Assembly: GCA_964512335.1 (NCBI GenBank)
Contig: CAZEIA010000003.1
Location: 1 to 52,910, forward strand
DNA: 52,910 nucleotides
Direction of reading: 5' to 3'
Source: an uncultured Desulfobacterales bacterium
GTDB lineage: Bacteria > Desulfobacterota > DSM-4660 > Desulfatiglandales > HGW-15
Shown here: in pieces, positions 3,827 through 47,798 of the stretch
Position numbering within the stretch: position 1 is the stretch's first letter
How the letters are laid out: the number at the start of each line of letters is the position of its first letter
Made by a program: the position numbers and the translations under genes
The notes under the pieces: generated by a model
What the model was told of the DNA's origin: nothing
Seen by the model: only the letters and a program-made list of their open reading frames with translations
The model's database searches: none

Positions 3827-3841
3827 AAATATATTCCTCTA

Positions 3842-13252: not shown

Positions 13253-13255
13253 GGA

Positions 13256-13903: not shown

Positions 13904-13943
13904 CCCGTTTGCTCCTTGTTTTTATTCACAGCAAGGTACATGC

Positions 13944-14873
13944 CTACAAAAAGGCGACCCGCATGCGGTCCCTGGGGTCCAGCCTCTCAAGACCCGCCTT
14001 GTGGGCCATATCCAAGGCGTCGCGGAATTCGTCGGCGGTAAGGCGACGGTTGATTATCTCGTCCTGGACCGCATCCCCGCAGGGACGGTACTGGTCCATT
14101 ACGTTCACGTAGGTGTGCGGAGAGATCTGCCGGGCGATAAAACCCGCCACCTCGCCGGTGCCGGCAACCCGCTCGGGCATCACCAGATGTCTCACCAGGA
14201 GACCCCGCGTGGCAATGCCGCGACCATTCACTGCCAGGTCCCCGACCTGTCTGTGCATCTCACGCAAGGCCTCCCGGGCCCTCTCCGGATAGTCGGGCGC
14301 ATTACAGAAACGGCCCGCCCATTTACCGTCCCAGAACTTGAAGTCAGGCATGTATATGTCCACAATGCCCTCCAGGAGACGAAGTGTTTCCACCTGGTCG
14401 TACCCGCTGGAGTTGTAAACCAGAGGAATCCTGAGCCCTGCTTCCGCGGCTATTGTCAAGGCCTCCAGCATCTGAGGCACCACATGCGTAGGTGTGACAA
14501 CGTTTATGTTGTGGCACCCCTGCTCCGACAGCAGGAGCATGATGCGGGCGAGCCCGGCCGCCTCCACCTCGACACCTTCGTTTCCGTGGCTGATGTCGCG
14601 GTTCTGGCAGAAGCTGCAAAGCAGGCTGCACGAGCTGATAAAAATGGTCCCTGACCCGTGCACGCCTACCAGGGGAAACTCTTCCCCAAAATGAGGGCTG
14701 TAGCCGGCTATCCGGGCAAGCCGGCCTGTTCGACAGACACCAAGCTCCCCCGCGAGGCGGTCCACCCCGCAGGCCCTCGGGCAGATCTCACAGTGCTCCA
14801 GCAGGGCCGCAGCCTCAGCCGCCCGCTCTTTCAATCGGCCGCTGCGAGCGAGGTCTAGATATAACGGCTCCAT
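13944..14873 (-). CDS. radical SAM protein, PflX/COG1313-like (activase-like)
   Basis: CxxxCxxC cluster CSLLCSFCQN followed by ISH, plus an N-terminal extra Cys pair CEICPRAC. Confidence 0.85.
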   Translation of the reverse strand: MEPLYLDLARSGRLKERAAEAAALLEHCEICPRACGVDRLAGELGVCRTGRLARIAGYSPHFGEEFPLVGVHGSGTIFISSCSLLCSFCQNRDISHGNEGVEVEAAGLARIMLLLSEQGCHNINVVTPTHVVPQMLEALTIAAEAGLRIPLVYNSSGYDQVETLRLLEGIVDIYMPDFKFWDGKWAGRFCNAPDYPERAREALREMHRQVGDLAVNGRGIATRGLLVRHLVMPERVAGTGEVAGFIARQISPHTYVNVMDQYRPCGDAVQDEIINRRLTADEFRDALDMAHKAGLERLDPRDRMRVAFL

Positions 14874-14958
14874 ATGGGCCCCGGCAAAAAACCGCTCCCT
14901 TCGGCTTATACCGCTTCCCGCCGAGGGGGCTGTCCGGCATGTAAAGACTCGGGCGGGA

Positions 14959-15669
14959 TCAGTCCCGGCCCCCTCCGAATATACGCAACATCAGGAGGAA
15001 GAGGTTAATGAAGTCGAGATACAAGGACAAGGCCCCCAGAATAGCCCCTTTCCGTATGACACCGGCTTCCGCATCCGCCGGCTGGGTCAGGGCCATGTTC
15101 TTGATCTTCTGGGTGTCGTAGGCGGTGAGCCCTACGAAAACGAACACGCCGATGTAACTGACCACCATACTCACGGCGCTGCTCCTTATGAACATGTTCA
15201 CCAGCGACGCAATGATGATCCCGATCAGGCCCATGAACAGGAAACCCCCAAGGGAGGTCAGATCCCGCTTCGTGGTCCATCCGTAAATGCTGCAAGCCAG
15301 GAAGGTGGCGGAGCAGATAAAGAAAGTGCTTACAATGGATTCCCTGGCGTACAATAGAAAAATAAAGGAAATAGTCACTCCGTTAAGCCCGGCATAGAGC
15401 ACGAAGAGTCCCGTAGCCGTCCCTGCACTCATTCGGCTCACCATCCCGCTGATGGAAAAAACCAGGGCAAGCTGGGCAATGATAAGCCCGAAGAAGATCA
15501 GGCTGTTCCCGAAAACCAGATTGAGTATGGCGGGAGAGTTGGAGACGTAATAGGCCACAAATCCTGTAATGGCCAGTCCTATGCACATCCAGTTGTACAC
15601 ACTTCGGACGTAGTCGTTGACAAATACCTCGGTTCGCGTCCTCGCCGCGGACGGATACTCTGCCATCAA
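14959..15669 (-). CDS. Bax inhibitor-1/YccA family membrane protein
   Basis: 236 aa with about 7 TM segments and the family motif AYDTQKI near the C-terminal third. Confidence 0.85.
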   Translation of the reverse strand: MMAEYPSAARTRTEVFVNDYVRSVYNWMCIGLAITGFVAYYVSNSPAILNLVFGNSLIFFGLIIAQLALVFSISGMVSRMSAGTATGLFVLYAGLNGVTISFIFLLYARESIVSTFFICSATFLACSIYGWTTKRDLTSLGGFLFMGLIGIIIASLVNMFIRSSAVSMVVSYIGVFVFVGLTAYDTQKIKNMALTQPADAEAGVIRKGAILGALSLYLDFINLFLLMLRIFGGGRD

Positions 15670-15815
15670 AAATTCCTCCTCGTTGTTGGGGTAGTGTTCT
15701 TCTTAAAGACTCGATTCAGGGCGATTCGACCGGCCTCCAGCCCCCCGCAGGCCTTCCTGTTTAGGGGCTCGGGCAGGCCGTTTTGGGCAAGAGTATAGGA
15801 ATCGCAGGTACCAGT

Positions 15816-16904
15816 TCAAGAAAAATGGGACAGCGAGCGCTTCTGTGTCTTTGATTTTCCGATCCGCTCCAGAAGTCGAACAACACGTTCCCAGACCTCA
15901 TCCACCCCGATAAGGTCCATGCACGAGTCCTCTGGTCGAATACAGGTCTCCTGCCTGCACCCGCAGCAGGGAACTCCCTTGAATACCACTTCACCGAGCC
16001 GGCTCAAAGGCATCCACATGTGAGGAAAGGTGGGGCCGAAGAGGGTCAATGTGGCGCACCCGGCTGCTGCAGCAATGTGAGCCGGGGCCGAGTCGTTGCC
16101 TATGAACAGGCTGGAACGGCTTAGAAGCTCTCCGGTCTCGAAAAGAGTCATATCTGCAGAGCAAAAATCCGGCGGCCTTTCCATGCGGGACTTGACCTCG
16201 TCCAGCAGGGCCTCTTCGCCCGGTCCACCCAGCAGGAGCACCGATGAACGGGTAGTGGCCTGGAGTTTTCGGCCGATCTCGCCGAAACGCTCACTTTTCC
16301 AGCGCCGCAGCGATCCCCGTGCGCCGGGGTGTATAACCACCCACGGCCTTTCCGCTGAAAGGCCTGCGCGATCGATCCTGCGGTCCACGCTGCGCTTCAC
16401 CGAGTCCGGCACGTGGAGCCCCAGTGTCCGCTCAAACCCGTCCAGCCCCAGGACCTTAAGGGAGGCGAGTTGGTGATCCACAATATGATTGGCGGCAGGA
16501 TCAGAGTCCACGAACCGGTTCATGAGAAAATGCGAAAGCCTGCCCGCATGCCGATGGGTGATACGGATCGGGGCCCCGGTCAAATAACAGATCAAGGCTG
16601 CACGATCGCCGTGAGTGTAGTCAATGACCACATCGTATCGCCTTGACCTCAACCGCTTTATCAGGTTAATCTGATATATTATTGATTTGTTTGTTAATTT
16701 TTTGGCCAGAGCATAGTCATAAGTCAACGTTCGGTCAATACACGGATGATGTATGACCACGGGTTCGGTACCCTGGTTCACCAGCACCTCCACCATGGTG
16801 CCAGGCGAGAGGCGCTTGAGGTTTTCCACCACCGGCACCATGCTCAGGGTGTCCCCGATATAGCGAAGCTTGACGATAAGGACACGTTTTCCGTAAAGAT
16901 CCAC
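15816..16904 (-). CDS. glycosyltransferase family 9 (heptosyltransferase-like)
   Basis: N-terminal VLIVKLRYIGDTL and C-terminal GNDSAPAHIAAA motifs typical of GT9. Confidence 0.85.
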   Translation of the reverse strand: MDLYGKRVLIVKLRYIGDTLSMVPVVENLKRLSPGTMVEVLVNQGTEPVVIHHPCIDRTLTYDYALAKKLTNKSIIYQINLIKRLRSRRYDVVIDYTHGDRAALICYLTGAPIRITHRHAGRLSHFLMNRFVDSDPAANHIVDHQLASLKVLGLDGFERTLGLHVPDSVKRSVDRRIDRAGLSAERPWVVIHPGARGSLRRWKSERFGEIGRKLQATTRSSVLLLGGPGEEALLDEVKSRMERPPDFCSADMTLFETGELLSRSSLFIGNDSAPAHIAAAAGCATLTLFGPTFPHMWMPLSRLGEVVFKGVPCCGCRQETCIRPEDSCMDLIGVDEVWERVVRLLERIGKSKTQKRSLSHFS

Positions 16905-16928
16905 AGTCTGTTTTCCGGGACGTCAGGA

Positions 16929-17750
16929 TTAACCGGTTCTCCGTTCCGGGTCGGCCGCGAGTTCTCGCAGTTTGGCGTACTTGAAAAAAGACCCGCCTGC
17001 ATTCATGATCGAGATAACGAGCCCGTCAAACCCGTCCAGGACGCCAAACTCTAATGCATATGTTCGAAAGAACATCCACAGGGCATGAAGGGGAGGCGTC
17101 AGGGGGCCTGCTGTGCGGCCGGAATCATACATTGATCGGGCCGCCAGGTCTGAATAGAGCTCCATCTTGGCAACGATATCGGAGTAAGTCCTGAAACTGA
17201 AGTGCTCAATAGGTGCACTAAGGAGTTGTTCGCGGCCACGGGTGAGCCAGCGCTCATGGACAGCACGACCGTCGAACGATCCATAACGGCGATCTACAAG
17301 ACGAAGGATTCGGTCGGGCCACCACCCGCAGTGACGAATCCATCTTCCGTGCAGAAAGTTCTTTCGTGGAAAGCTGAAGGCAGTCACTGCATTGTCTTTG
17401 GACGACAGCGCGTGCAGGATTGCTTCGGCGGTCTCTATAGGCACCCGCTCGTCCGCATCCAGGACAAGGACCCAGGAGTTCGAGCATGAGTCCACGGCGA
17501 ACTGCTTCTGCCCTGAAAACCCACTCCAGTTCTCCACTATTACACGGGCTCCCAAGGAGTCGGCTATCTCCACGGTTCGATCCGTGCTTCCCGAATCCAC
17601 CACCACGATCTCGTCTGCAAATGAGACGCTCTCGAGACATGCCGGAAGGCGTTCCTCCTCGTTTCGTGTTATGACGGCGACGGAGAGGCCCTTCTCATCT
17701 TCAAGGTCCCTTTTACTTCTGGAATCCCCTCCCCCCATTGGCCCCGGCAT
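16929..17750 (-). CDS. glycosyltransferase family 2
   Basis: VAVITRNEE...VVVDSGSTDRT and DADE motifs. The start codon lies 3 nt after the pfp stop. Confidence 0.85.
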   Translation of the reverse strand: MPGPMGGGDSRSKRDLEDEKGLSVAVITRNEEERLPACLESVSFADEIVVVDSGSTDRTVEIADSLGARVIVENWSGFSGQKQFAVDSCSNSWVLVLDADERVPIETAEAILHALSSKDNAVTAFSFPRKNFLHGRWIRHCGWWPDRILRLVDRRYGSFDGRAVHERWLTRGREQLLSAPIEHFSFRTYSDIVAKMELYSDLAARSMYDSGRTAGPLTPPLHALWMFFRTYALEFGVLDGFDGLVISIMNAGGSFFKYAKLRELAADPERRTG

Positions 17751-21207: not shown

Positions 21208-22755
21208 ATGCCCCTGGACGAACTTCTTCCAAAGGCAGTCAAGCTTTATCCCGAAAGAGAAGCAGTGGTGTGCGACGATTTGCGCCTGGACTACCGCTCA
21301 TTTTCCGAGCGGGTCTGGAGGCTGGCCAACGGCCTCGATTCCATGGGTCTTGAAAAGGGTGACCGGGTCGCAATTCTGCACGAAAACTGCCATGTTTTCC
21401 TGGAAGCCTACTTTGCAGCCGCTCATCTGGGCCTGATCCTGGTGCCCCTTAATTTCAGGCTGTCGCCCAGAGAACTGGCCATGATACTCAACGACAGTGG
21501 CTCAGGCGTCCTCATCGCCCAAAGCAAATTCCAGGACGGGGTGAACAGCCTGGCCGGGTTCTCGTGCAACATGCAGCGGATCATATGGACGCAAAAGGCC
21601 GCAGGCCCGGGGGAAACGGCGTACGAAGACCTTCTGGCCGGGCAGACAGCGGTTCCTCCCCGGAACCTCGGCCTTCGGGACGACGATGTGGCCCATTTGT
21701 ATTATACGAGCGGAACCACAGGCAGACCCAAAGGCGTTATGCTGACGCATAAGAACGTCAAGAGCCACGCACTCGGAACCATTGCGGAGCTTAACCTCAC
21801 AGACAGGGATCACTGGTTCCACGTCGCCCCCCTCTTTCACCTGGCGGACGCCTGGGCCACCTTTGCCATCACCTGGGCCGGGGGAAAACATGTGCTCACA
21901 CCTGTCTTTGACCCGCTTCGAGTCCTCTCCCTCATCCAGGAGGAGCAAATAACCCTAAGCAACCTGATTCCCACCATGCTCAACATGATGGTCAACCAGC
22001 CTGAGGTAGGGGACTTCGACTTCTCAAGCCTGAGGGTCATTTTGAGCGGTGGGGCACCGATAGCCCCGGAGGTGGTGCGAAAAATCATCGATACCTTCAA
22101 GTGTGACTACATCCAGACTTACGGCATGACCGAGACCAGCCCCTATTTGACCCTTTCCATTTTGAAAGATCACCTCAAAGGGCTGCCCCGCGAAAAACAA
22201 CTGGAATATAAGGCGAGCACGGGCAGGGAATTTATCAACGTGAGCCTCAAGGTCGTTGACCCTGACGGAAGAGAGGTTGCAAGAGACAACTTGGAGGTGG
22301 GAGAAATAATTGTCAAGGGAGATACGGTGACGCCCGGTTACTGGAACCTGCCGGATGAGACCCAAAAGGCCCTGAAGGACGGGTGGCTTTACACAGGGGA
22401 CCTTGCTGTGGTCAACGAAGAAGAGTATGTCAATATCGTAGATCGTAAAAAAGACATGATTCTGACGGGCGGAGAAAACGTCTATTCCACGGAGGTCGAG
22501 AATGTCCTCTACACCAACAACGCTATCCTGGAGGCCGCCGTCATAGCTGTGCCTGATCCAAAATGGGGAGAGGCTGTCAAGGCCTGTGTCGTGTTGAAGC
22601 CCGGCGAAAAGGCCACTGAAGAAGAAATCATTGCCTTCTGCAAGGCCAATCTGGCAGGTTACAAGGCACCCAAGACCGTTGACTTCCTCGACGCCCTTCC
22701 GAGAACAGGCTCCGGCAAGATCTATAAGAAGGGATTAAAAGACCCTTACGTCTGA
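21208..22755 (+). CDS. AMP-dependent acyl-CoA synthetase/ligase (fatty-acid-CoA-ligase-like)
   Basis: AMP-binding motif YTSGTTGRPKGV, then TGDLA and the C-terminal GKIYKK lysine motif. AGGAGG SD. Confidence 0.9.
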   Translation: MPLDELLPKAVKLYPEREAVVCDDLRLDYRSFSERVWRLANGLDSMGLEKGDRVAILHENCHVFLEAYFAAAHLGLILVPLNFRLSPRELAMILNDSGSGVLIAQSKFQDGVNSLAGFSCNMQRIIWTQKAAGPGETAYEDLLAGQTAVPPRNLGLRDDDVAHLYYTSGTTGRPKGVMLTHKNVKSHALGTIAELNLTDRDHWFHVAPLFHLADAWATFAITWAGGKHVLTPVFDPLRVLSLIQEEQITLSNLIPTMLNMMVNQPEVGDFDFSSLRVILSGGAPIAPEVVRKIIDTFKCDYIQTYGMTETSPYLTLSILKDHLKGLPREKQLEYKASTGREFINVSLKVVDPDGREVARDNLEVGEIIVKGDTVTPGYWNLPDETQKALKDGWLYTGDLAVVNEEEYVNIVDRKKDMILTGGENVYSTEVENVLYTNNAILEAAVIAVPDPKWGEAVKACVVLKPGEKATEEEIIAFCKANLAGYKAPKTVDFLDALPRTGSGKIYKKGLKDPYV

Positions 22756-22813: not shown

Positions 22814-23291
22814 CCCATCCCTGAACTGAACGTCAGGGCTGTCACTCTGCACCAGCACAAAACCCAAATCTCTCTGTGTGATGACGGCCTTAACCTGGGA
22901 AAGCTACGTCTACAATGAGTCACTGTCGGCGGATCAGCACAACTCTAATCCCCCGCATAAGCCGGAAACGGTGAGACAAGGCGTTGAAATATCTTGATGT
23001 GTCACGAACCTGACCCCGGCCCTGCCTGCGAAAACAGGGCTTATTGCATGTTTAAACACCCTTTTTTCAATGATTCCAGAAATTTGTATCTTATGACGCG
23101 TTTAAGATTTATTCTTGACACACTCCAGTCACGCTGGTACATGTTTATCCAATAAGATAATTTTCTATAAATTTTTACCCATACAGATAACATAATATTG
23201 TCAGTTAAACCAAAGAGGGCTCCAGGTTTTGATAAAGGCTAACAAAACATATATTAAGCACTTTAAACTACAAAATAAGGAGATCTTGACC

Positions 23292-24314
23292 ATGAAAAAA
23301 AGTTCTGTAATAGGCGTTTTGCTCATGTCAGCTTTTGCATTGCTTCTGTTCTCTGGCACTGGGATGGCGAAAACCATCGAACTTAAATTTGCACATGCAT
23401 TTTCGCCGAAGCACACGATGCAGGTTCGGGTGTTTGAACCCTGGGCCGAAAAAATCAACAAAGAGACCGACGGAAAGGTAAAAGTGACATTTTTCCCAGG
23501 CGGTGCGCTTGGAAAGACACCCGACCACTATGAGCTGGCGGAAAAAGGCATTGCAGACATCATCTATATTCTTCACGATTACACGCCCGGCCGTTTTCCT
23601 ATGACTGAGGTCTACAGCCTGCCTTTTATGACACCATCGGCTACGAAGACTTCAAGGGCCATGTGGAAAACATATGAAAACTTCCCGGAATTCCAGAAAG
23701 AATACAATAAGGTCAAAGTCCTTGCCCTTTTTTGTCACCCCGGCGGAGACTTTCACACAGTAAAGAAACCCATTAGAACCGTCGAAGATTTCAAGGGCAT
23801 GAAGATCCGGACTGCCAACCCCTCGGTCACCGAAGCTCTCAAGATTTTCGGAGCCGTTCCGGTCACGACTCCGGTCACCGAGACCTACACCGCTCTTGAA
23901 AGAGGTGTGGTGGACGGCACTGTGGTCCCCTGGGAAGGTCTCGGCATCTTTAAACTGGACGATCTGACCAAATATGCTACCATGGCCGACTTTTACACCA
24001 TGACTATGATGGTGGTTATGAACAAGAGAAAATGGGAATCACTGCCCGATGACGTTAAGAAGGTGATTGACGAAAACAGCGGAATGTCATTGTCGGAATG
24101 GTGCGGCAAGGTTTACGATGAAACGGACGAGCCCTTCAGGAATCAGGCCCTTGAAAAAGGCATCGAGATCATCGAACTTTCCGATGAGGACAAAGAAAAA
24201 TTAAAGAACATGACCATGCCCTTGAGGGAACAGTGGGTCAAGAACATGGAGGCCAAGGGATATCCCGCCCAAGACATATTGGATGCGGCGCTTGAGTATC
24301 TTAAGGAAGAATAA
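23292..24314 (+). CDS. TRAP transporter substrate-binding protein (DctP family)
   Basis: Signal peptide MKKSSVIGVLLMSAFALLLFSGTGMA, then the ELKFAH...W motif typical of DctP. ATG 23292 has an AAGGAG SD. Confidence 0.9.
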   Translation: MKKSSVIGVLLMSAFALLLFSGTGMAKTIELKFAHAFSPKHTMQVRVFEPWAEKINKETDGKVKVTFFPGGALGKTPDHYELAEKGIADIIYILHDYTPGRFPMTEVYSLPFMTPSATKTSRAMWKTYENFPEFQKEYNKVKVLALFCHPGGDFHTVKKPIRTVEDFKGMKIRTANPSVTEALKIFGAVPVTTPVTETYTALERGVVDGTVVPWEGLGIFKLDDLTKYATMADFYTMTMMVVMNKRKWESLPDDVKKVIDENSGMSLSEWCGKVYDETDEPFRNQALEKGIEIIELSDEDKEKLKNMTMPLREQWVKNMEAKGYPAQDILDAALEYLKEE

Positions 24315-24367
24315 ACAAGCGGGCTCTAATCACGCCCCGGTAACAGTAAACTGGAAATTCGCCGTGG

Positions 24368-24402
24368 GAGGAGGCGGCAAGACTTGTTCTTGCCGTCTCC
24401 TC
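24368..24402 (+). promoter_or_regulatory. 15-bp intercistronic stem-loop after the TRAP binding-protein gene
   Basis: GAGGAGGCGGCAAGA-cttgt-TCTTGCCGTCTCCTC (one G.U pair) lies 54 nt after the dctP-like stop and 41 nt before the small-permease start. Confidence 0.6.
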
Positions 24403-24442
24403 TTGACAGATATACAGAACCCGGAGGAGGCTCCAACACCCC

Positions 24443-24946
24443 ATGAAAAGGAAGAGCCTGTTGAAGAAAATGGAGACCATCAGTTCCTTGCTGGCCTACG
24501 TGGGGGCATTTGCCCTTCTCTGCATGATGCTGATCACCACGGTTGATGTGGCAGGGCGATATCTTTTCAGTAAGCCTATCACAGGGGCATTTGAGATTAC
24601 GGAATTCCTAGTGCTGATCCTGATTTTTTCCTTTCTTGCATTTACTCAAGCAGGCAAGGGCCATGTTTCCGTGGATCTCCTGTTTACTCTTTTTCCCCGG
24701 CGGCTCCAGATAGCCATAGATTTGGTTACTCACACAATCTGTCTCATTCTTATGCTCTTGATCACATGGATGGGGGTCGAAAAAGCGCTGGAATTGATGG
24801 CTGTCGGGGGAACATCTCCAAACCTCAAGATCCCGACTTACCCCTTTGTGTTTTTTCTCGCCCTGGGATGTACGGTTATGTGCATTCAGTACCTTTTGGA
24901 TATCATCAAGTTGTTTATGGGCCGAAAGGAGAATACCGCCTCATGA
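24443..24946 (+). CDS. TRAP transporter small permease (DctQ family)
   Basis: 167 aa with four hydrophobic segments. Its stop overlaps the start of the large permease (ATGA). Confidence 0.85.
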   Translation: MKRKSLLKKMETISSLLAYVGAFALLCMMLITTVDVAGRYLFSKPITGAFEITEFLVLILIFSFLAFTQAGKGHVSVDLLFTLFPRRLQIAIDLVTHTICLILMLLITWMGVEKALELMAVGGTSPNLKIPTYPFVFFLALGCTVMCIQYLLDIIKLFMGRKENTAS

Positions 24947-26256
24947 GTTCGGAGATGGTCGGTGTCCTGGGGATCGTCTTTCTCTTTGTTTTGCTTGCCT
25001 TGCGGATGTATATCGGCATGGCCATGGCTCTTGTCGGATTTCTGGGATTATGCGTTCTGGTAGGCGTTCATGCTGGCATAAACATTTTGGGAATCACTCC
25101 CCTTGCGGAAGGTTCCTCCTACACCCTGAGCGTGATTCCACTTTTTGTGCTCATGGGACAGTTCGCCTTCCTTTCAGGAATAAGCTCGGACATTTACAGG
25201 ACTGTCTATACCTGGATGGGACATTTTCGAGGCGGTATGGCCATGGCAACCATCGTGGCCTGCTCCGGCTTTGCGGCGGTCTGCGGTTCATCCCTGGCTA
25301 CCGGAGCCACAATGGGAATGGTGGCCATTCCTGAAATGAAGAAATACGATTACGATTCAAGATTGGCCACGGGATGTGTTGCCGCAGGCGGCACCCTGGG
25401 GATCCTCATCCCCCCCAGTATCGGTTTTGTCCTTTATGGTATCCTCACGGAACAATCCATCGGCAGGCTTTTCATGGCCGGGCTTATACCCGGGATTTTA
25501 CTGGCTTCTCTCTTTGTCATCGTCATCGCCATCCAGTGCAGAATCAATCCCGAAATGGGGCCCTGCGGCCCGGCCACCACCTGGAAAGCCAAAGTCAAGT
25601 CCCTGGGAAACACGTGGGGTATGCTGGTCCTGTTCATTATTGTTATGGGAGGCATATACCTGGGTGTCTTCACTCCTACGGAAGCCGCGGGCGTCGGGGC
25701 ATTCGGTGCTTTTCTTTTTGTACTTCTGAAAAAGAAGTTAAAAATGAACACGTTCATGCAAAGCCTCCTGGATACGGGTAAAACGACGGCCATGATCTTT
25801 CTGATCATTATCGGCGCAAACATGTTCTCCTCCTTTCTCGGGCTGACGAAACTCCCTATGCTTCTGGCCGATTTTACGGCAAACCTGCCTCTGCCCAGGG
25901 TCTTGATTCTCGCATGCATTATCCTCGTCTATTTGGCCCTGGGCTGTGTCATGGACTGTTATGCAATCATGATCCTGACGGTTCCCATTCTTTTCCCGGT
26001 AATTGAAGCATTGAATTTCGACCCAATCTGGTTTGGAGTCCTCATGGTCATTGTTTTGGAGGTCGGACTGATTACACCACCTGTGGGCCTTAACGTATTT
26101 GTTATAAAAGGTGCAGCCCCGGATGTGCCCCTGACGACCATTTTCAGGGGTATTCTGCCTTTTCTGATTGCCGCTTTTATGGCTATTATCCTTATTATCG
26201 CTTTTCCGCAGATTGCGACCTTTCTGCCGGATCGCATGTGGGGCGCCATGGGATAG
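24943..26256 (+). CDS. TRAP transporter large permease (DctM family)
   Basis: 437-aa polytopic protein starting MSSEMVGVLGIVF. The track ORF (24766) extends upstream in a frame that overlaps dctQ and is unlikely to be translated there. Confidence 0.9.
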   Translation: MSSEMVGVLGIVFLFVLLALRMYIGMAMALVGFLGLCVLVGVHAGINILGITPLAEGSSYTLSVIPLFVLMGQFAFLSGISSDIYRTVYTWMGHFRGGMAMATIVACSGFAAVCGSSLATGATMGMVAIPEMKKYDYDSRLATGCVAAGGTLGILIPPSIGFVLYGILTEQSIGRLFMAGLIPGILLASLFVIVIAIQCRINPEMGPCGPATTWKAKVKSLGNTWGMLVLFIIVMGGIYLGVFTPTEAAGVGAFGAFLFVLLKKKLKMNTFMQSLLDTGKTTAMIFLIIIGANMFSSFLGLTKLPMLLADFTANLPLPRVLILACIILVYLALGCVMDCYAIMILTVPILFPVIEALNFDPIWFGVLMVIVLEVGLITPPVGLNVFVIKGAAPDVPLTTIFRGILPFLIAAFMAIILIIAFPQIATFLPDRMWGAMG

Positions 26257-26428: not shown

Positions 26429-26821
26429 ATGGAAGAACTGAAACGCTACTTCGAGACCACCAAAGGGACCGGTGTCCTGTCAACGGCGGATGCCGACGGA
26501 TGCGTCGACGCCGCTGTCTATTCACGGCCCCACGTCATGGAAGACGGCACTCTGGCCTTCATCATGCGGGACCGCCTCACCCACAGAAACATCACTGAAA
26601 ACCCCCATGCAGCCTTTCTGTTCATTGAAAACGGTCCGGGCTATAAAGGAAAACGCCTCTTTATCACCAAGGTTCGCGAAGAGGCTGAAAGCGAGCTTCT
26701 ATACGAGCTTCGACGCAGGACGTTTACGGACGAAAAAGACCAACAGGAAGTAAAATACCTGGTTTTTTTCAGGCTCGACAGGGAGCTCCCGCTGGTAGGT
26801 TCGACCGCACCGGAGAAATAG
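26429..26821 (+). CDS. pyridoxamine 5'-phosphate oxidase (PNPOx)-like FMN-binding family protein
   Basis: 130 aa. The GVLSTADADGCVDAAVYS pattern is typical of the split-barrel FMN-binding fold. GAGGG SD. Confidence 0.65.
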   Translation: MEELKRYFETTKGTGVLSTADADGCVDAAVYSRPHVMEDGTLAFIMRDRLTHRNITENPHAAFLFIENGPGYKGKRLFITKVREEAESELLYELRRRTFTDEKDQQEVKYLVFFRLDRELPLVGSTAPEK

Positions 26822-26826
26822 TCCGA

Positions 26827-27564
26827 TCAGTACATCCCTCCGTTTACGGAAAGGACTTGACCTGTGATATAGGAGGCGTCTTCAGAGCATAAGAAGCGAA
26901 CCACCTTTGCCACCTCTTCAGGCCTGCCCATCCGTGCCATGGGTATCATCCGTTTGATGAAATCCCTGGGCACGTCCCCGCTCATCTGTGTTTCGATCAT
27001 TCCCGGCGCAACCACATTGACCCGGATTCCGAGCCTGGCAACCTCGCACGCAATAGAGCGACTTGTACCGATCAACCCGGCCTTTGCAGCCGAGTAATTG
27101 GCCTGCCCCCTGTGGCCGATCAGGCCCGACATGGAGGAGATGCTGATAATGCTCCCTTGCTTTTGATGCATCATTTTTTCAATAACCGGCCGGGTCACAT
27201 TAAAGAAACCCTTCAGGTTGGTATTCAGGACCGAGTCCCATTCCGCCTCGGTCATGAAGACGAAGAGCCCGTCCGCCGTGATTCCGGCATTGTTGACCAG
27301 GACATCGATATGGAGAAATCGGGAGCAGATATCTGCTATGGCAGTGGCGGTGTCTTCGGAGCTGGAGACGTCAAATCGGTTCGTTTCACCTTCCCCGCCT
27401 GCATCTTCTATCATCTGAAGGGTCACCGCTGCTGCGTCATCATCGGATTGGTAATTGATAATGACATAATAGCCCGCTTCAGCCAATTCCCTGCATATGG
27501 CCCTGCCGATGCCCCTGCTTCCTCCAGTGACCAAGGCCGCTTCTCTATCTCTATTTTTGTTCAT
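26827..27564 (-). CDS. 3-oxoacyl-ACP reductase (FabG-like SDR)
   Basis: TGGSRGIG cofactor motif, NNAG, and catalytic S...YSAAKAG. Confidence 0.9.
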   Translation of the reverse strand: MNKNRDREAALVTGGSRGIGRAICRELAEAGYYVIINYQSDDDAAAVTLQMIEDAGGEGETNRFDVSSSEDTATAIADICSRFLHIDVLVNNAGITADGLFVFMTEAEWDSVLNTNLKGFFNVTRPVIEKMMHQKQGSIISISSMSGLIGHRGQANYSAAKAGLIGTSRSIACEVARLGIRVNVVAPGMIETQMSGDVPRDFIKRMIPMARMGRPEEVAKVVRFLCSEDASYITGQVLSVNGGMY

Positions 27565-27660
27565 TTCCCTTTATATCCTCAACACACTCCAAATGGAGCC
27601 ACATGAACGGCGGGTGAATCCCGCCCTGCGAAAACAAGGGTCGTGAAGGGTCGTGTTTTC

Positions 27661-27689
27661 TTGACAAGGTAATTTACTGAAATCATAAA
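27661..27689 (+). promoter_or_regulatory. candidate sigma70 promoter for the ACP/KS/rSAM operon
   Basis: TTGACA (27661-27666), a 17-nt spacer, then CATAAA (27684-27689). Confidence 0.35.
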
Positions 27690-27699
27690 TAATTGTCAA
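27671..27699 (-). promoter_or_regulatory. candidate sigma70 promoter for the FabG-like gene, interdigitated with the plus-strand promoter
   Basis: The minus strand reads TTGACA (27699-27694), a 17-nt spacer, then TAAATT (27676-27671). Confidence 0.3.
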
Positions 27700-27863
27700 T
27701 AGACATCCAGCTCGTTTACGGGACTTGAAAAAACAATTAGTTCACAGATTCAGGATTTTGTTCAGGAAAAAACAAATTGACCCCGAAATCCAATGATAAT
27801 ATTATTGAAAGTTTATGATGTACTTTTTTGATACTTATCGTCACTAACGCGAAGGAACGAAGT

Positions 27864-28130
27864 TTGAAAAATCTGATAAATGAACTCAGGGTCAAGATAG
27901 TTCAGACACTCAACCTCGAAGACATCGACCCGGAAGAGCTCGGTGAAACAGATCAGCTTGTTGGTGGGGAACTGGGGCTTGATTCCATAGATGTATTAGA
28001 ACTGGTAATGATGATCGAAAAGGATTACGGCGTCAGAATCGACAACGAGGAACTGGTCGCCGAGGTCTTTATAAATTTGGAGACCCTGGCGGTCTATATC
28101 AGTGAACATTCGGCGGGGAAAGGCCGTTGA
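27864..28130 (+). CDS. acyl carrier protein (dedicated, cluster-associated)
   Basis: Phosphopantetheine attachment motif GLDSIDVLELV. The likely start is TTG 27864 (GAAGGAA upstream), while the track ORF starts at TTG 27828. The stop overlaps the next start (TTGA). Confidence 0.8.
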   Translation: MKNLINELRVKIVQTLNLEDIDPEELGETDQLVGGELGLDSIDVLELVMMIEKDYGVRIDNEELVAEVFINLETLAVYISEHSAGKGR

Positions 28131-30295
28131 CCGGCGTACGGATCTGTATAGCCGGCATCGGGTTGATCTCCCCGTTGGCGTGCGGGGTCCCGGAGACCTG
28201 GATCGCCTTGAAAGCAGGGAAAAAGGGTATCGGCCCTCTTAAGCTTTTCCCGGTGGCGGAAGGCAGCTCATTGCCGGTCGGAGAAGTCAAGACCCGTCTG
28301 GCTGACCCTGGGGTCCCCAGGACGCACAACCTGGCGCTCATTGCCGCGAAAGAGGCCCTGGCGGGTTCACCCGACCCTCCTGATGCCGTGGTTATGGGGG
28401 TGACCACCGGCGGAATGCTTGAAACCGAGGAGTACTTTAAGACCGGTAAGCCTGTCGGGACAGGGTTCTTATTCCATGCCCCTAGCTCCGTAACCGAATA
28501 CCTGGCTGCACAACTCCGCTGCCCGGGGCCGGTGATCACTGTTTCAACGGCGTGTTCGTCAGGGGTTGCAGCCATCAAGATCGCAGTAGAAATGCTGAGG
28601 GCCAATCAGGCCAAAAGGATCCTTGTGGGTGGTGCGGACGGCCTCTGCCGGCTGACATATTACGGATTCAGGGCCCTTCAGCTGATTGATCCGGCCGGGG
28701 CCAGGCCCCTGGATGTGGACCGTCACGGCATGACTCTGGCGGAAGGGGCCGGCATGATTCTGCTTGAAGCAAGGGAAAAAACGCCGGAGAATGATTCCTG
28801 TGAGGTCCTGGGGGCCGGCCTGTCCTGCGACGCCTATCACCCCTCATCCCCTGATCCCCAGGGGGCAGGCGCTTTGGCTGCCATGAGGGCCGCCCTTGAA
28901 GACGCGGGGATCCTTCTGTCAGGAATCGACTACATCAGTGTCCACGGCACAGGGACCGTTAATAATGATCTCTCAGAAGCAAAGGCCTTAAACGCCCTGT
29001 TCGGCAAGAAGATGCCGCCCCTTTCTTCCGTCAAGGGGGCTATGGGGCACAGCCTGGCAGCGTCGGGGGCCATTGAGGCCGGAATCGCCGCCATGAGTAT
29101 CAGGGGGAGTCTGATACCGGGCACAACCGGCTGTGTTCGGCCCGACCCACGCCTGGGATTGAATCCACTTATCAATCCGCTTGAAGGGGATGTGAACACC
29201 GTCCTTTCAAATGCCTTTGGTTTCGGCGGGAACAATGCCTCGGTGGTTATCGGCCGGCGGGGCTCGATGCGGTTACCGGATACACCGGAAAACGGGCGGC
29301 ATCTTACAGTGACGGGCAGCGCCTGCCTCAGTGGAGCCGGGAATATCATCCAGGCCATACGTGCGGTCTGGGAAACAGGACACTGCCGCGGGATACTCCC
29401 TGACAGGGACTTTTCCTTTAATCTTCCCTCCCGATCCATCCGGCGGTTCAAGCGGCTGTCGCGAATGGCCTTATCCCTGGCCGTTTCGGCCCACGAAAAC
29501 GCAGAAAGCCCTGCTGAACCGGCCTCGGTCTTTTTCAGCACCGGCTGGGGAGCCCTTTCAGAGACATACGGCTTTTTGACCGGACTTGAGTCTTCCGAGG
29601 AGGCGTTTTCCAGCCCTACCGGATTTGTGGGGTCGGTCCACAACGCACCGGCCGGTAACATCGCAGTCCACTTCCGGGCGACCGGTCCTAATATAACGAT
29701 CACAGGTGGTGATTATTCCTTTGAACAGTCTTTGATGACCGCCGGTCTTCTGATAAGAGAAAATCATGTCCCGGCGCTGGTGGTGGGTGCTGACGAGTTC
29801 CACGAAAAGCTCTCCAGGAGTTTTGATCGTTCTGTGGCCGGTTGTGACACGCCGGCCGACGGGGGGGGAGCACTCTGTGTTACGCGTTCCCGAGACCCGT
29901 CAGGCACAAGGATCGCCTCTTTATTCTTTGAAAATCCAAAAAACAATCCTTCGATCATGGGCTCACTGGTCCACAGCCTGGGTGGCATGAAAAGAATCAA
30001 TGCTGCTTATGGGGCCATCTTCGCAGGGATTCCCGGCGCCTGGGAAAATCTCGGCCGCAGGCAGCTCCATGAGTTCTGCACGGATGTGGGTTTCCGGGGG
30101 CCGGTGATCCGGTACCGGCGGTTTACGGGTGAATTTGCCTCGGCGTCGGCCGTGGCAGCGGTCCTTGGCGTCACCTTTGTGAGAGAAGGAAGGATCCCCG
30201 GCGGGTTTGTGGACGGAGGCGATTTCAGCCTGAACGGACAGGGAATTTTGATGCTGGGCCTCGGCGGATTCATAACAGCCGTTGAAATCACCTGA
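28127..30295 (+). CDS. fused beta-ketoacyl synthase / chain-length-factor-like protein (722 aa)
   Basis: The N-terminal half has the full KS triad contexts TACSSG, VHGTGT and GHSLAASG. The C-terminal half (from about nt 29300) is KS-fold-like, but the nucleophile position reads GGDYSFEQ and the His motifs are absent. Confidence 0.85.
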   Translation: MTGVRICIAGIGLISPLACGVPETWIALKAGKKGIGPLKLFPVAEGSSLPVGEVKTRLADPGVPRTHNLALIAAKEALAGSPDPPDAVVMGVTTGGMLETEEYFKTGKPVGTGFLFHAPSSVTEYLAAQLRCPGPVITVSTACSSGVAAIKIAVEMLRANQAKRILVGGADGLCRLTYYGFRALQLIDPAGARPLDVDRHGMTLAEGAGMILLEAREKTPENDSCEVLGAGLSCDAYHPSSPDPQGAGALAAMRAALEDAGILLSGIDYISVHGTGTVNNDLSEAKALNALFGKKMPPLSSVKGAMGHSLAASGAIEAGIAAMSIRGSLIPGTTGCVRPDPRLGLNPLINPLEGDVNTVLSNAFGFGGNNASVVIGRRGSMRLPDTPENGRHLTVTGSACLSGAGNIIQAIRAVWETGHCRGILPDRDFSFNLPSRSIRRFKRLSRMALSLAVSAHENAESPAEPASVFFSTGWGALSETYGFLTGLESSEEAFSSPTGFVGSVHNAPAGNIAVHFRATGPNITITGGDYSFEQSLMTAGLLIRENHVPALVVGADEFHEKLSRSFDRSVAGCDTPADGGGALCVTRSRDPSGTRIASLFFENPKNNPSIMGSLVHSLGGMKRINAAYGAIFAGIPGAWENLGRRQLHEFCTDVGFRGPVIRYRRFTGEFASASAVAAVLGVTFVREGRIPGGFVDGGDFSLNGQGILMLGLGGFITAVEIT

Positions 30296-30356
30296 ACGCT
30301 GACACCTGGTTCCTGGACAGTAATAAATGCGACAAATAGAAAGACAGGGTTTTTGA

Positions 30357-31705
30357 ATGAAGGTATTGCTCATTTCGCCCAACTCCCTGACTACGCCCTA
30401 CCCGGTATACCCCCTGGGTCTTGATTATGTGGCCGATGCAATCAGAGCCGAGCATAAGGTCAAAATCCTGGATATCAACGCCTTGGGGGGGCTCGAAGCT
30501 CTAGGGAAAGCTATTCGGGACTATGTCCCTGACATGGTCGGAATCTCGTTACGAAACATTGACAACACCGATAAAACAGACCCGAGCGTCTTCATGGAGG
30601 ATTATCAGGCGTGTTTAAAGACCGTCCGGAAAAACACCAAGGCCCCGGTGGTACTGGGCGGAGCCGGGTTTACTCTATTTCCCGAACAGATCATGAACGA
30701 ATTGGAAGCTGAGTATGGCATTGTGGGAGAAGGAGAGAGACTGGCCGCACTCCTCAGGGCCATGGAAAAGGGAAAGGATGTTTCCCGTATCCCCGGTATC
30801 GTGACCAGGGATTCGAACAAGGGGGCATTTGTGCCCCTTGACCGGGCATTCGCTCTGAATTGTCGCCCCGAGCCTTCAGGACTGGAGTATTATCTGAAAA
30901 ACGGTGGAATGCTTAACCTTCAAACCAAACGTGGATGCCCTTTCAAGTGCATCTATTGCACCTATCCCGGCATCGAAGGTGACCGGTTACGGCGCATTCC
31001 TCCTGAGGCGGCCGCGGAGCAGGCATTGCGTCTTCAGGAATCAGGGGCACGATACTTCTTTGTGACGGACTCTGCTTTTAATGCCGACTACGCACACAGC
31101 TCCCAGGTGGCCGAGGCGTTCATGGATACAGGAATTTCTATCCCCTGGGGGGCCTTTTTCGCCCCCACGAGCCCCCCTGACGGATATTTCCAGATCCTGG
31201 CCGATGCAGGGCTTTCCCATGTGGAGTTCGGCACCGAGTCATTGTCGGATAAGATGTTGGCGGCGTACGGAAAGCCTTTTCGATCCGATCATGTGATCAA
31301 GGCCCATGAGCGTGCCCTTGATGCAGGCTTATATGTCGCCCACTATTTTCTCCTCGGAGGGCCGGGTGAGGATGCAGACACGATCGAGGACACCTTTTCC
31401 AATATTGCTCGACTCAAAAAAAGCGTCTTCTTTTTTTTTGTGCTATGCGTATTTATCCCGGTACAGCACTTTATGAAATCGCAGCGGAAGAGGGTCAGAT
31501 ATCAAGGGATCAGAGTCTCTTGAGACCGGTTTTCTACGAGCCCGGGCGGATCGGGAGCGATGAAATCGTCCGGAGGCTCAAAAAGCAAGCTGAGGGACGG
31601 CCCAACTGGGTGACGGGGGCGGGAGGTGAAGCCACTACCAGGGTCATTTCCAGGTTATACAGCCGGGGACATACGGGCCCGCTCTGGGAGTACCTGATTC
31701 GGTGA
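30357..31705 (+). pseudogene. B12-binding-domain radical SAM protein (lipid-cluster type), interrupted by a -1 frameshift in a T9 run
   Basis: N-terminal MKVLLISPN...YPLGLDYVA (B12-binding fold) and the CxxxCxxC motif RGCPFKCIYCTY. The frame is lost at T9 (31431-31439). The family-typical continuation ...MRIYPGTALYEIAAEEG... lies in the other frame (31445-31705). One extra T would give a continuous 449-aa protein. Confidence 0.8.
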
Positions 31706-31781
31706 CCCCGTATGCCCTTCAAGGGTTTAATCCCCCTGGGAACACTTCCGGCATAAACCGGAACCACCGTTTCACGGGGCT

Positions 31782-32498
31782 TCACCCGTGGAATGCGTTC
31801 AGACACTCCTGCATGAGATTGACAAGCGTGGCCGGCTTTTTGTCATTCAACAGCACCTCCCCCTCTTCTGTCAATTCCACAACACCGTAATAAGGCCTTT
31901 GTTCAAAGTGAGGTGTCTGCTCGATCATGATAAAAGCCGCTCCAGGCGGTATTTTCGCTGTCGACGGGAAATCCGGAGGACAATTCCCGTCCACTATCCC
32001 TGCAAGGCCTTTTTCAAACTCATTCAACCGCATGTTCAAGAGGAGCGCGCTCAAACTCGAGAGGCCGGCAAAATGGGGGTCATGGATCACATAGGATAAT
32101 CCGGTGGTCCCGTAGTGACCGGCGGCCTCCCCCAGAAAGCAGTTGGGAAGTGTATAGGAAAACAGAATCGGGCTTCCCTGACCCCCGTCACCTTGAATAA
32201 CCGTATCATAATAGTCCATATCGGTCTGAAGACACCCATACACCGTAGAGGCGACGATGCCGATGGGACGCTTTTCCGTCCATTCATGGAGCCCGGCATC
32301 CCTCAACGCAAATGCGATCCCGGCCAGACCCAGTTTGGAAAACTCATCCATGCGGCCGAAATGAGAAAAGGGTTTGTCAGTCACTGCTTTCCGGCTGACC
32401 GGAGGCACGCTGCCGGGGGTCATATCAAAACACTTGCTCTCCCGGCCGCAACCCATTCCCCCGACTGTAACCCAACCCATACCGGTAATGAACGGCAT
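31782..32498 (-). CDS. half-size KS-like protein lacking the active-site cysteine (CLF-like partner)
   Basis: 238 aa starting ITGMGWVT, like a KS N-terminus. There is no ACSS-type nucleophile (the region reads VIHDPHFAGLSSL) and no His motifs. It starts 5 nt after the stop of the upstream KS. Confidence 0.7.
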   Translation of the reverse strand: MPFITGMGWVTVGGMGCGRESKCFDMTPGSVPPVSRKAVTDKPFSHFGRMDEFSKLGLAGIAFALRDAGLHEWTEKRPIGIVASTVYGCLQTDMDYYDTVIQGDGGQGSPILFSYTLPNCFLGEAAGHYGTTGLSYVIHDPHFAGLSSLSALLLNMRLNEFEKGLAGIVDGNCPPDFPSTAKIPPGAAFIMIEQTPHFEQRPYYGVVELTEEGEVLLNDKKPATLVNLMQECLNAFHG

Positions 32499-32503
32499 AA
32501 CAT

Positions 32504-33721
32504 TCAGCCTCCTCTTTCCAGGACAATGACGGCGTTTACACCCCCGAAACCTGAATTGGAGGTCAACAGGTAATCGCCCCGTACGGCAAGAGGTTTGTCA
32601 AAAACTCGGCCCTGAGCCCCCTCGGCAGGACAGGAAAACCCCACTGTGGGCGGCACAATCTGCCGGGCAAGCACTTTCAGGCCCAGAGCAATTTCAATGC
32701 CCCCTGCAGCGCCCAGGGTATGCCCGATGGCCCCTTTGACTGAATACACAGGTGGCCAACACATGCTTGCGTGGTCTCCGAAACACCGGCCGAGGGCTCT
32801 CAGCTCCATGGCATCATTGGAGATCGTTCCAGTACCGTGCGCACAGACGGCACACACTGCTTCTTTTTTCAGGCCTGCACGTCTCAAAGCTTGGTTGATG
32901 GCGCTTGTCAAGCCGTATCCATCAGGATCCGGAGCGGTGATATGAAAGGCGTCATTAGCGGCACCCCACCCGCAGACCTTGCCCAAGGGTGTTTTTCCCT
33001 CGGCTTCAGCCCGTTGTTTGCTCATGAGAAGCAGAGCAACTGCGCCTTCCCCCAGGCTCAGGCCGCTGCGATTAAGATCAAAAGGCCTGCAGGGGGTTAC
33101 GGAAAGAGCGCCTAAGGCGGAAAACCCGGAGAACACAAACTCGGTCACAAGATCCGCACTGCATACGAGTACGGCATCGGTTGTTCCGGAACGGATTAAT
33201 ACGCAAGCCTGCGAAACCGCGATTGCTGAAGAAGCGCAGGCTGCGCTGATGTTTACTCCTTGCTTATTCAGCCCGAATGTCTCGGACACAACCTGCGGAA
33301 AGGATGCGGGAAGGATTTTTTCGGCATGGTACGGCCGGCCCCGTTTAAGCCTCTCCAGCACGTCCACTCCCGCCTTGGCGGTAGCGGTCAAGAGCGATAC
33401 ATCCGAAGGGACAGGCCCCAACCCCCGGGCCAGCCGCGCCAGCAGATCATTCATCATGGAGCCATATCCCGTTGGCTTCAGGTCTGGAATACAGGCCGCG
33501 ACACTGCTCGGGTATTCATCTGCATTGAACCTGTCAATCGAACGGATGGCCGTCTTTGAATTGAGGAGCGCAGGCCATATTTCCTCGAGGCAGTCACCCA
33601 GTGCGGTAACCGCAGCCACACCCGTAATCCAGATTTCTTTTTGCCCCGTCGTATAAGTGAACATCATGACATCTCTTTCAGCATATTTAGCCCAAGGGTA
33701 CATGACCAATATATCGACCAC
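32504..33721 (-). CDS. beta-ketoacyl-ACP synthase (FabF/KS-alpha-like)
   Basis: 405 aa with SAACASSA (Cys), AHGTGT and GHTLGAAG motifs, and GFGGVNA near the C-terminus. Confidence 0.9.
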   Translation of the reverse strand: MVDILVMYPWAKYAERDVMMFTYTTGQKEIWITGVAAVTALGDCLEEIWPALLNSKTAIRSIDRFNADEYPSSVAACIPDLKPTGYGSMMNDLLARLARGLGPVPSDVSLLTATAKAGVDVLERLKRGRPYHAEKILPASFPQVVSETFGLNKQGVNISAACASSAIAVSQACVLIRSGTTDAVLVCSADLVTEFVFSGFSALGALSVTPCRPFDLNRSGLSLGEGAVALLLMSKQRAEAEGKTPLGKVCGWGAANDAFHITAPDPDGYGLTSAINQALRRAGLKKEAVCAVCAHGTGTISNDAMELRALGRCFGDHASMCWPPVYSVKGAIGHTLGAAGGIEIALGLKVLARQIVPPTVGFSCPAEGAQGRVFDKPLAVRGDYLLTSNSGFGGVNAVIVLERGG

Positions 33722-46165: not shown

Positions 46166-46392
46166 GGAGCCGTTCCTGGAAGGACCGTTACCATAGCTGA
46201 AGCGTGGCCCCAGCATAAAATCAGGAAATCCGTGAAATTTTTTTACCCTGTAAATCGGTACGAATAAATCAGCCCTGTGGGTACCCGCATTTGCCATTAA
46301 TCATCTGCTGTAGTGCAAAAGATCTAAAGCTGAATGCCGAAGTATCCGATTGGTTTTATGTCGCCTGAAATTTTTATGACCGGAGATTTCAT

Positions 46393-47695: not shown

Positions 47696-47798
47696 GTTAG
47701 GATGTCTTGGAATCGAATCAGTTTGCTCACGATCTCAATCGGAGTTCCGGCCCAGGAGGCATAATATATGGAGGTCATGTCATCCAAGATCGCGAGGG

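Follow-up and report, generated by a model that had tools for sequence, protein, structure and literature searches.

A probable compact variant of the Desulfobacterota 'ladderane-type' gene clusters with a conserved nine-T frame break in its cobalamin-binding radical SAM gene

In a 52,910-nucleotide (nt) stretch of DNA from an uncultured Desulfobacterales bacterium (contig CAZEIA010000003.1 of assembly GCA_964512335.1, positions 1 to 52,910; hereafter the window), positions 26,827 to 33,721 hold six adjacent genes for building an acyl chain: a ketoreductase (KR), an acyl carrier protein (ACP), a fused ketosynthase and chain-length factor (KS-CLF), a cobalamin (B12)-binding radical S-adenosylmethionine enzyme (rSAM), a half-size ketosynthase (half-KS) and a full-size ketosynthase (KS). 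An earlier note, made from the sequence alone, had pointed to these six open reading frames (ORFs), and all of them lie where it placed them, in the orientations it gave. Our favoured reading, to which we assign a probability of roughly 0.55, is that this locus belongs, as a compact variant, to the 'ladderane-type', aryl-polyene-like lipid clusters of the Desulfobacterota, that it probably arose by deletion and is kept by selection, that it works by the mechanism proposed below, and that its rSAM is completed by slippage on a run of nine T (T9). Clusters of this kind are already known and annotated; the compact form is new, and the conserved slippery run in the rSAM gene is undescribed in the literature that we searched.

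The rSAM gene (30357-31705, + strand) is spread over two frames, with frame 0 extending from 30357 to 31523 and a second ORF from 31445 to 31705. Frame 0 encodes 388 amino acids (aa), the final 27 of which form an out-of-frame tail, and the -1 frame runs on to 31705. The break falls at T9 (31431-31439, +), within the codons of a VFFFF strand. As encoded, the two pieces score 333.3 and 41.2 bits on TIGR04072, the NCBIfam "lipid biosynthesis B12-binding/radical SAM protein", each under the curated equivalog cutoff of 360 bits, and the 449-aa protein obtained by adding one T scores 389.5 bits over model positions 1-443. The earlier note had proposed this family and expected PF02310 and PF04055 in the rejoined protein, and both domains were found (aa 12-130 and aa 191-347, respectively). 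The runner-up families are BzaD (164 bits) and TsrM (130 bits), and the CxxxCxxC motif reads CPFKCIYC (aa 194-201, nt 30936-30959).

The note had treated the frameshift as something to repair and missed that it is a conserved feature. We gathered 174 related loci (numbered L001 to L174), labelled their ORFs by BLAST against reference proteins, and found TTC-T9-G, broken at the same codon, in 10 assemblies from 5 lineages: the window, L170 (Logan SRR31660264), L171 (Logan SRR31660263; run at 1811-1819), L001 (GCA_051744445.1; 11075-11083), L167 (GCA_046483635.1), L002 (ENA ERZ10759785; 2178-2186), L168 (GCA_046538475.1), L169 (SRR29060563; 6584-6592), L012 (1502-1510) and L013 (10498-10506). 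Truncated rSAM proteins from NCBI, ENA, JGI, MGnify and Logan fall into three clusters with 20 distinct sequences, 18 of which are 388/389-aa products with the T9-type break, one of which has an interrupted run and one of which is partial and in frame. Leaving aside a single T10 allele considered below, in-frame runs at this site reach T8 at most across all related loci, and all T9 runs are out of frame. The purity of the run is kept amid flanks that vary, neighbouring synonymous sites included. By neighbour-joining, the T9 lineages branch as a paraphyletic series inside a single clade, and nested among them are two in-frame lineages with interrupted runs (TTC ATC TTT TTT or TTC TTC TTT TTC), a pattern that would fit an old T9 that reverted twice or a T9 that arose repeatedly. 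That the site has been conserved since the Desulfobacterota lineages diverged to synonymous saturation is a view that we hold only tentatively. A scan of JGI metagenomes for the rSAM gave two more compact loci and no further T9.

Some other rSAM homologues are broken at other places, at ~aa 120-126 in L028 (3903-5245) and L106 (3744-5086) and at ~aa 334 in L156 (10001-11273); L053 (10001-11348) has many broken ORFs across the locus and looks like a long-read assembly artefact. The window itself contains two T9 runs in all, and the other one (6338-6346) overlaps a 98-aa ORF (6068-6364, -) upstream of tig and may be intergenic.

Between T9 lineages, the 86 codons past the run in the -1 frame have a ratio of non-synonymous to synonymous substitution rates (dN/dS) of 0.10-0.40, at dS values from 0.5 to saturation, which is similar to that of the upstream 360 codons. 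Such purifying selection past the run indicates that the C-terminal part of the rSAM is translated. In an AlphaFold2 model (mean predicted local distance difference test, pLDDT, 86) of P0001, a homologue 81% identical to the window rSAM, T9 codes for the last strand of the barrel (VFFFF, residues 356-361) and residues 362-449 form a confident helical C-terminal domain. Standard decoding yields a 388-aa rSAM that lacks this domain, and slippage, whether by RNA polymerase, as a -1 shift of the ribosome or in the DNA itself, is the only way to the full-length 449-aa protein. The identical product ...SVFFFFCAMRIYPG... would come from an mRNA with one U more or from a -1 shift on U_UUU_UUU, and a T10 allele would also join both frames. 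Downstream of the run we found no conserved stimulatory RNA structure (RNAalifold -7.2 kcal/mol, with no covariation support); the fold of the window RNA past T9 has a z-score of -0.97, and a search of Rfam gave no match. The lack of a conserved structure mildly favours polymerase slippage over a -1 ribosomal shift, and by analogy with Shigella mxiE the most likely route to full-length rSAM would be an RNA polymerase that adds one U. Precedents for such slippage are Shigella flexneri mxiE, in which one nucleotide is added at a U run, and the A9 run of Thermus thermophilus dnaX (PMC1088944). The rSAM gene shares with them a nine-long homopolymer on the coding strand, two overlapping ORFs, a longer product that needs one extra nucleotide and recurrence across species; it differs in being a biosynthetic rSAM gene of Desulfobacterota for which slippage is predicted from sequence, and in that a T10 allele also exists. 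Our literature search returned no relevant report of recoding in radical SAM genes.

The genes around the rSAM form two apparent ketosynthase/chain-length-factor pairs with a KR and an ACP. The KR (26827-27564, -; 245 aa) is a short-chain dehydrogenase/reductase (SDR) of FabG/FlxB-like type, with PF13561, PF00106 and PF08659, whose top NCBIfam matches are the FlxB SDR model (307.9 bits, cutoff 340) and FabG NF004200 (300 bits, cutoff 273). It is divergent from the ACP operon, and the region between them (27565-27827) holds promoter-like sites at 27699-27671 (-) and 27777-27805 (+) that each match 10 of 12 positions and are consensus matches only. The ACP (27828-28130, +; PF00550) carries the attachment motif LDS53ID, with the codon of the phosphopantetheine Ser53 at 27984-27986, and scores 62 bits on PRK09184; its real start may lie a few codons downstream, as relatives have 86-92 aa.

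The KS-CLF (28127-30295, +; 722 aa) has PF00109 and PF02801 at aa 5-334 and PF13723 at aa 433-567, with the C-terminal half beginning at ~29291. We read active-site columns by alignment to Escherichia coli FabF, which served as a ruler only. The N-terminal half keeps Cys143, His273 and His308, and the C-terminal half has Asp-Tyr, Phe and Glu in those columns, so that by its residues the former is predicted to be an active ketosynthase and the latter a dead, chain-length-factor-like partner. The second KS of a Brocadiaceae locus shows the same kind of loss as this dead half. The best solved relatives of the KS half of the fusion are 9s5h_B, 6kxd_A (Iga11) and 6qsp_A (ApeO, 8.8e-46).

On the opposite strand, converging on the rSAM gene, lie the half-KS (31782-32498, -; 238 aa) and the KS (32504-33664, -; 386 aa). 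The half-KS lacks both the active-site Cys and the C-terminal half of a ketosynthase, and it belongs to a family of 539 proteins whose length is ~235-257 aa throughout the 120 listed, an ApeC-like chain-length factor by its features. Its profile aligns with the dead half of the fusion (hhalign probability 79%, E 1.5e-5), and its AlphaFold2 model (pLDDT 88) matches the N-terminal half of FabF, the ishigamide chain-length factor Iga12 and ApeC, with template modelling (TM) scores of 0.58/0.58 and equal length against ApeC (6qsp_B, 238 aa). The ORF of the KS is open to 33721, but the protein probably starts at Met20 (33664) since relatives are called at 386 aa (L170, L171). In the numbering of the 405-aa ORF, the triad Cys162, His295 and His334 is kept, and the protein scores 236 bits on cispentacin AmcF (cutoff 325). 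Exact database look-up of the half-KS and of the 405-aa KS ORF gave no record. Active-site columns, profile alignment and the ApeC-like model thus bear out the ketosynthase/chain-length-factor logic of the earlier note, and judged from sequence the two pairs are of the aryl-polyene type.

The layout of the window, ACP > KS-CLF > rSAM > < half-KS < KS, which we call type B, recurs in at least five diverged lineages: L003, L004/L166, L083 and L084/L163-165, in which the rSAM is 76-81% identical to that of the window, and the near-identical strains L170/171, in which it is ~91% identical. The flanks of these loci are unrelated, consisting of MarR and methyltransferase genes, a PAS kinase or tetratricopeptide repeat genes. 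Four genes (ACP, KS-CLF, half-KS and KS) have dN/dS of 0.09-0.29 at dS 0.5-1.8 among type B loci, which argues that the compact block is not decaying. The synteny that the note expected for six genes stands for five of them, with the KR left out.

A larger arrangement of ~20 genes, type A, is widespread in the Desulfobacterota (e.g. L001, L006, L013, L090 and L167-L169). To its left it reads B12-like 422-aa protein < 225-aa protein < LolA < KR < ApeP-like dehydratase <|> ACP > KS-CLF > rSAM, and to the right of the rSAM follow an ApeI-like dehydratase > ACP > two rSAM-like genes > KS > KS > 4HBT thioesterase > phosphopantetheinyl transferase (PPTase)-like gene; some type A loci add ACP, KS and acyltransferase genes. 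The KR, ACP, KS-CLF and rSAM of the window are 73-76% identical to their counterparts in L001 (76% for the KR, 74% for the ACP against ACPb and 73% for the KS-CLF). Besides the TIGR04072 rSAM, type A clusters carry three divergent radical-SAM or B12-like genes (422, 375 and 332 aa); in L001 they lie at 3050-4318, 12134-13261 and 13291-14289, and they match known families weakly (for example Tes at 28 bits and NirJ at 27-29 bits).

Inside type A clusters, neither the KS nor the half-KS of the window has an orthologue. Large genomes have the half-KS in a module of its own, 149-aa protein > KS > half-KS > family 2 glycosyltransferase (GT2) > second B12-rSAM (~477 aa), found at 8398-13012 in L172, 8401-12974 in L173 and 15249-17522 in L168. 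In the type A loci L012, L168 and L169, this module, ending in the ~477-aa rSAM, GT2 and half-KS genes, stands directly after the cluster and convergent to it. GT2 genes accompany TIGR04072 rSAMs in many distant loci too. The simplest reading, which we infer from these arrangements, is that type B arose from type A plus the half-KS module by loss of ~11 kb, from rSAM to half-KS, together with loss on the dehydratase/LolA side. The description of the block as 'self-contained' was in this respect too generous an interpretation, as the block would be a reduced derivative of a ~20-gene aryl-polyene (APE)-like cluster with dehydratases, thioesterase, acyltransferases and LolA.

The rSAM has more than 4,900 homologues, the closest of them from Desulfobacteraceae and from metagenome-assembled genomes of Thermodesulfobacteriota. 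An ACP and a KS/CLF pair adjoin the rSAM in the window and in most related loci examined. More distant members of the family (33-38% identity) stand in KR > ACP > hotdog > KS > CLF > rSAM operons, and a Brocadiaceae locus reads KS > CLF > KS ... rSAM > ACP. By sequence, then, the predicted constant company of the TIGR04072 rSAM is an ACP and a KS/CLF pair.

This company is known from the anammox bacteria. Lipid clusters with a B12/rSAM gene were described in Kuenenia stuttgartiensis, with synteny in Desulfotalea, Geobacter and Pelobacter (Rattray et al. 2009, PMC2649909), and type A probably corresponds to the Desulfotalea psychrophila loci of that study; in D. psychrophila, polyunsaturated hydrocarbons were detected and ladderanes were not (PMC2649909). 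No cluster enzyme has been tied to a product, and the rSAM has yet to be produced in a heterologous host (Dietl et al. 2023 PMC10139942; PMC13459092; 10.64898/2026.05.19.726425). A 'ladderane' class has been part of antiSMASH since version 3, and reports of 'ladderane' clusters of unknown function are routine for Desulfobacterota as well as for other non-anammox phyla (PMC9902471). The statement in the earlier note, of a family found in candidate anammox ladderane loci and in similar Desulfobacterota loci with no established product, agrees with this literature (PMC2649909, PMC10139942, PMC13459092, PMC9902471); a search of the literature for the identifier TIGR04072 itself gave no match.

Anammox Cluster I (Kuenenia stuttgartiensis KustE3603-3608) comprises amxACP, amxFabZ, amxFabF2, amxFabFmut, a phytoene-dehydrogenase-like protein and a B12 radical SAM. 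Like the window, it has a dedicated ACP, pairs an active KS with a dead one as chain-length factor and carries a TIGR04072-type rSAM, and neither has a proven product; the window rSAM shares 36% identity with its counterpart in the Brocadiaceae locus L030. In contrast to Cluster I, the window has its KS and CLF fused, an extra KS/half-CLF pair and a Desulfobacterota host, and it lacks an amxFabZ-type dehydratase and a phytoene-dehydrogenase homologue. In anammox bacteria the two FabF homologues pair up as a KS/CLF-like heterodimer, which decarboxylates malonyl-ACP and has a preference for short chains (bioRxiv 10.64898/2026.05.19.726425). Compared with type A (L001, L167, L168), with which it shares orthologous KR, ACP, KS-CLF and rSAM and, in several members, the same T9, the window is without the ApeP/ApeI-like dehydratases, the two additional ACPs, the two further rSAM-like genes and the two additional KS, and it also lacks the 4HBT thioesterase, the PPTase-like protein, LolA and the acyltransferases.

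The likeness to the aryl-polyene ApeO:ApeC system of Xenorhabdus doucetiae (6qsp) lies in the KS with a 238-aa half-size chain-length factor, in PF13723 within the fusion and in the FlxB/ApeQ-like KR, and in the relatives it extends to ApeI/ApeP-type dehydratases and LolA. Unlike the APE system, the window has no aryl-starter enzymes, methyltransferase or dehydratase, and it has a cobalamin rSAM, which APE clusters lack. By analogy, the system is best described as a predicted APE or highly reducing type II polyketide synthase (PKS) assembly line with a cobalamin rSAM.

For the rSAM, the best match in both sequence and fold is TsrM (6wte, 6wtf), the cobalamin-dependent tryptophan C2-methyltransferase, on which the P0001 model superposes with a TM score (normalised to the query) of 0.84-0.86; AprD4, MgmA, OxsB, CysS and TokK come next, CysS and TokK having been solved with pantetheinylated ligands. 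Identity to TsrM is ~21-23%, the window rSAM is shorter and its substrate is presumably ACP-bound. In TsrM, Arg69 lies under the corrin and Glu273 ligates the unique iron, blocking SAM binding and radical chemistry (PMC8992657). The Arg69 equivalent is invariant in the rSAM homologues, including the window protein, whereas the position of Glu273 holds Val, Ala, Ile, Thr or Leu and never Glu among the 112 of 120 homologues with a readable motif, so TsrM-like polar, non-radical chemistry is not expected. What may reasonably be expected is radical methylation of the ordinary class-B kind, or some other radical C-C reaction, with an ACP-tethered chain as substrate.

This could provide a mechanistic outline for the block. 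The dedicated ACP would bear the growing chain, and the KS-CLF, as a covalent equivalent of the amxFabF2/amxFabFmut heterodimer and of ApeO:ApeC, may by analogy with anammox decarboxylate malonyl-ACP as a priming step and extend a short chain. The KR would reduce the 3-keto group; dehydration would be supplied in trans, as probably would the other missing steps. The rSAM would then modify an ACP-bound intermediate at an unactivated carbon, its likeliest reaction being class-B C-methylation through a 5'-deoxyadenosyl radical and methyl-cobalamin, with C-C bond formation also possible, and the second pair, the active KS with its ApeC-like half-size chain-length factor, may carry out further condensation. 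The methyl-branched, cyclised or polyene-like product predicted in the earlier note is a hypothesis, and from the presence of LolA, acyltransferase and GT2 genes in type A the final product may be a membrane lipid.

Several observations weigh against the favoured reading. The KR adjoins the block in the window only and is missing from that place in the remaining compact loci. On its own the pathway is incomplete, since genes for a dehydratase, an acyltransferase, a thioesterase and export are absent from the window. Since TIGR04072 enzymes are without a known product or activity, the chemistry is extrapolated, and the identity of PDB 9s5h with the anammox heterodimer is inferred from the preprint and not stated by the search output. 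At the run itself, L174 (GCA_048620935.1, 7190-7204), of the lineage of L002/L168, has T10 in frame, the sole T10 seen, on a contig that ends at 7250, 46 nt past the run. The truncated protein P0130 (MGnify MGYP006288805967, P0084 cluster) has an interrupted run (SVFFFIALC...) that is still out of frame, and it may be a true pseudogene or an error. Variation in run length at the DNA level, or decay in some strains, is thus real.

The T10 allele bears most directly on the serious rival, in which the gene is a phase-variable contingency locus, OFF at T9 and ON at T10 by replication slippage, with the sampled populations mostly OFF. An in-frame T10 in a lineage otherwise T9 is what this account predicts, homopolymer tracts are hypermutable (PMC1088944), and the purity of the tract amid varying synonymous neighbours would suit it as well. 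We nevertheless judge it rather unlikely. The T9-type break prevails in 18 of the 20 distinct truncated proteins and in 10 of the 11 loci with a run of at least nine, across five lineages and many sources, and no T8 or T11 variants of the T9 allele were seen; a collection of 15 billion proteins holds no full-length protein more than 90% identical to that of the window; and a mostly-OFF gene is not expected to hold dN/dS at 0.1-0.4 up to synonymous saturation. Phase variation and RNA-level slippage are not mutually exclusive, and the former may be an additional layer on the latter.

It is improbable that the block is a decaying remnant of a large cluster without a function of its own, or plain housekeeping fatty acid synthesis of type II (FAS-II). 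The absence of dehydratases, thioesterase, acyltransferases, LolA and GT2 relative to type A would fit a remnant, but the compact order is kept in at least five lineages with differing flanks, and the dN/dS values of its four genes lead us to reject pseudogenisation. A housekeeping role could be read from the KR, which passes the FabG model; the fusion and the KS, however, reach only 255 and 238 bits on fabF TIGR03150 (cutoff 493.75) and the ACP 33 bits on acpP TIGR00517 (cutoff 70.45), and the gene order is not the fabH-fabD-fabG-acpP-fabF order, as the earlier note had also argued, so we reject FAS-II too.

The rSAM might instead be naturally split, with an N-terminal protein of ~388 aa and a separately initiated C-terminal piece of ~86 aa assembling non-covalently. 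All T9 sequences have an ATG or GTG past the run, and gene callers annotate the second small ORF. The in-frame homologues have Met, Val, Ile or Leu at that position too, so it is no special start; a conserved Shine-Dalgarno sequence 5-10 nt upstream was not found, the break sits within the last barrel strand, and the exact conservation of T9 would be left unexplained, which together make a split enzyme highly improbable. Finally, we reject as very improbable indeed a homopolymer sequencing or assembly error, with genomes that really carry T10 and an ordinary intact rSAM gene: homopolymers are error-prone on some platforms and one related assembly does read T10, but exactly T9 is read in ten independent, concordant assemblies from several sources and pipelines, the window rSAM protein is identical in NCBI and Logan, the other genes at T9 loci are intact, the in-frame T8 runs of relatives are read correctly, and the G8 and C8 runs of the window (inside KS-CLF and lon) are in frame, which indicates that its assembly is not prone to such errors.

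The window starts with tig-clpP-clpX-lon, which places the contig on the chromosome. The block is flanked on one side by a tripartite ATP-independent periplasmic (TRAP) transporter and a PNPOx-like protein, and on the other by an M20 peptidase, a racemase and a peptide ATP-binding cassette (ABC) transporter. As the earlier note had stated, there is no malonyl transferase, dehydratase, enoyl reductase or thioesterase gene beside the block. The ORFs scanned, from the window start to ~44.7 kb, include no member of the hotdog or amine-oxidase families, and ApeI/ApeP dehydratases, thioesterase, acyltransferases and LolA-type export genes are absent from the window. Upstream of the block lie an AMP-binding acyl-activating enzyme (21208-22755) and the TRAP transporter region (23229-26256). 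We considered the AMP-binding ligase and the PNPOx-like gene (26429-26821) as cluster members and dropped them, as neither is conserved beside compact loci; L163 does have an AMP-binding gene 7 kb away from its compact locus, but a different one. Elsewhere in the window, 12236-17750 (-) encodes a 2-hydroxyglutaryl-CoA-dehydratase D-like protein, a metallophosphoesterase, a small radical SAM (309 aa), a Bax1-I-like protein and GT9 and GT2 glycosyltransferases. Positions 46001-48000 have a GC content of 0.415 against ~0.55 elsewhere and, around a 318-aa ORF (46739-47695), may be an acquired segment.

The TIGR04072 rSAM leads the candidates for the step in ladderane synthesis that forms the rings or modifies the chain, anammox bacteria are genetically intractable and the enzyme has resisted heterologous production (PMC10139942). 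The compact locus narrows its conserved context to five genes that remain under selection, those for the ACP, KS-CLF, rSAM, KS and half-CLF, as a minimal reconstitution set. One consequence of T9 is practical: annotation pipelines call these rSAM genes truncated or split, and naive cloning of the ORF loses the C-terminal domain. It is possible, although we would put the odds below even, that T9 is a programmed recoding site that sets the ratio of truncated to full-length rSAM and that the five-gene core is the minimal natural unit of the rSAM reaction. If the slippage is indeed programmed, a biosynthetic enzyme would join the small set of cellular genes that require recoding, and, going by the literature that we searched, no recoding event would have been reported in a radical SAM gene before.

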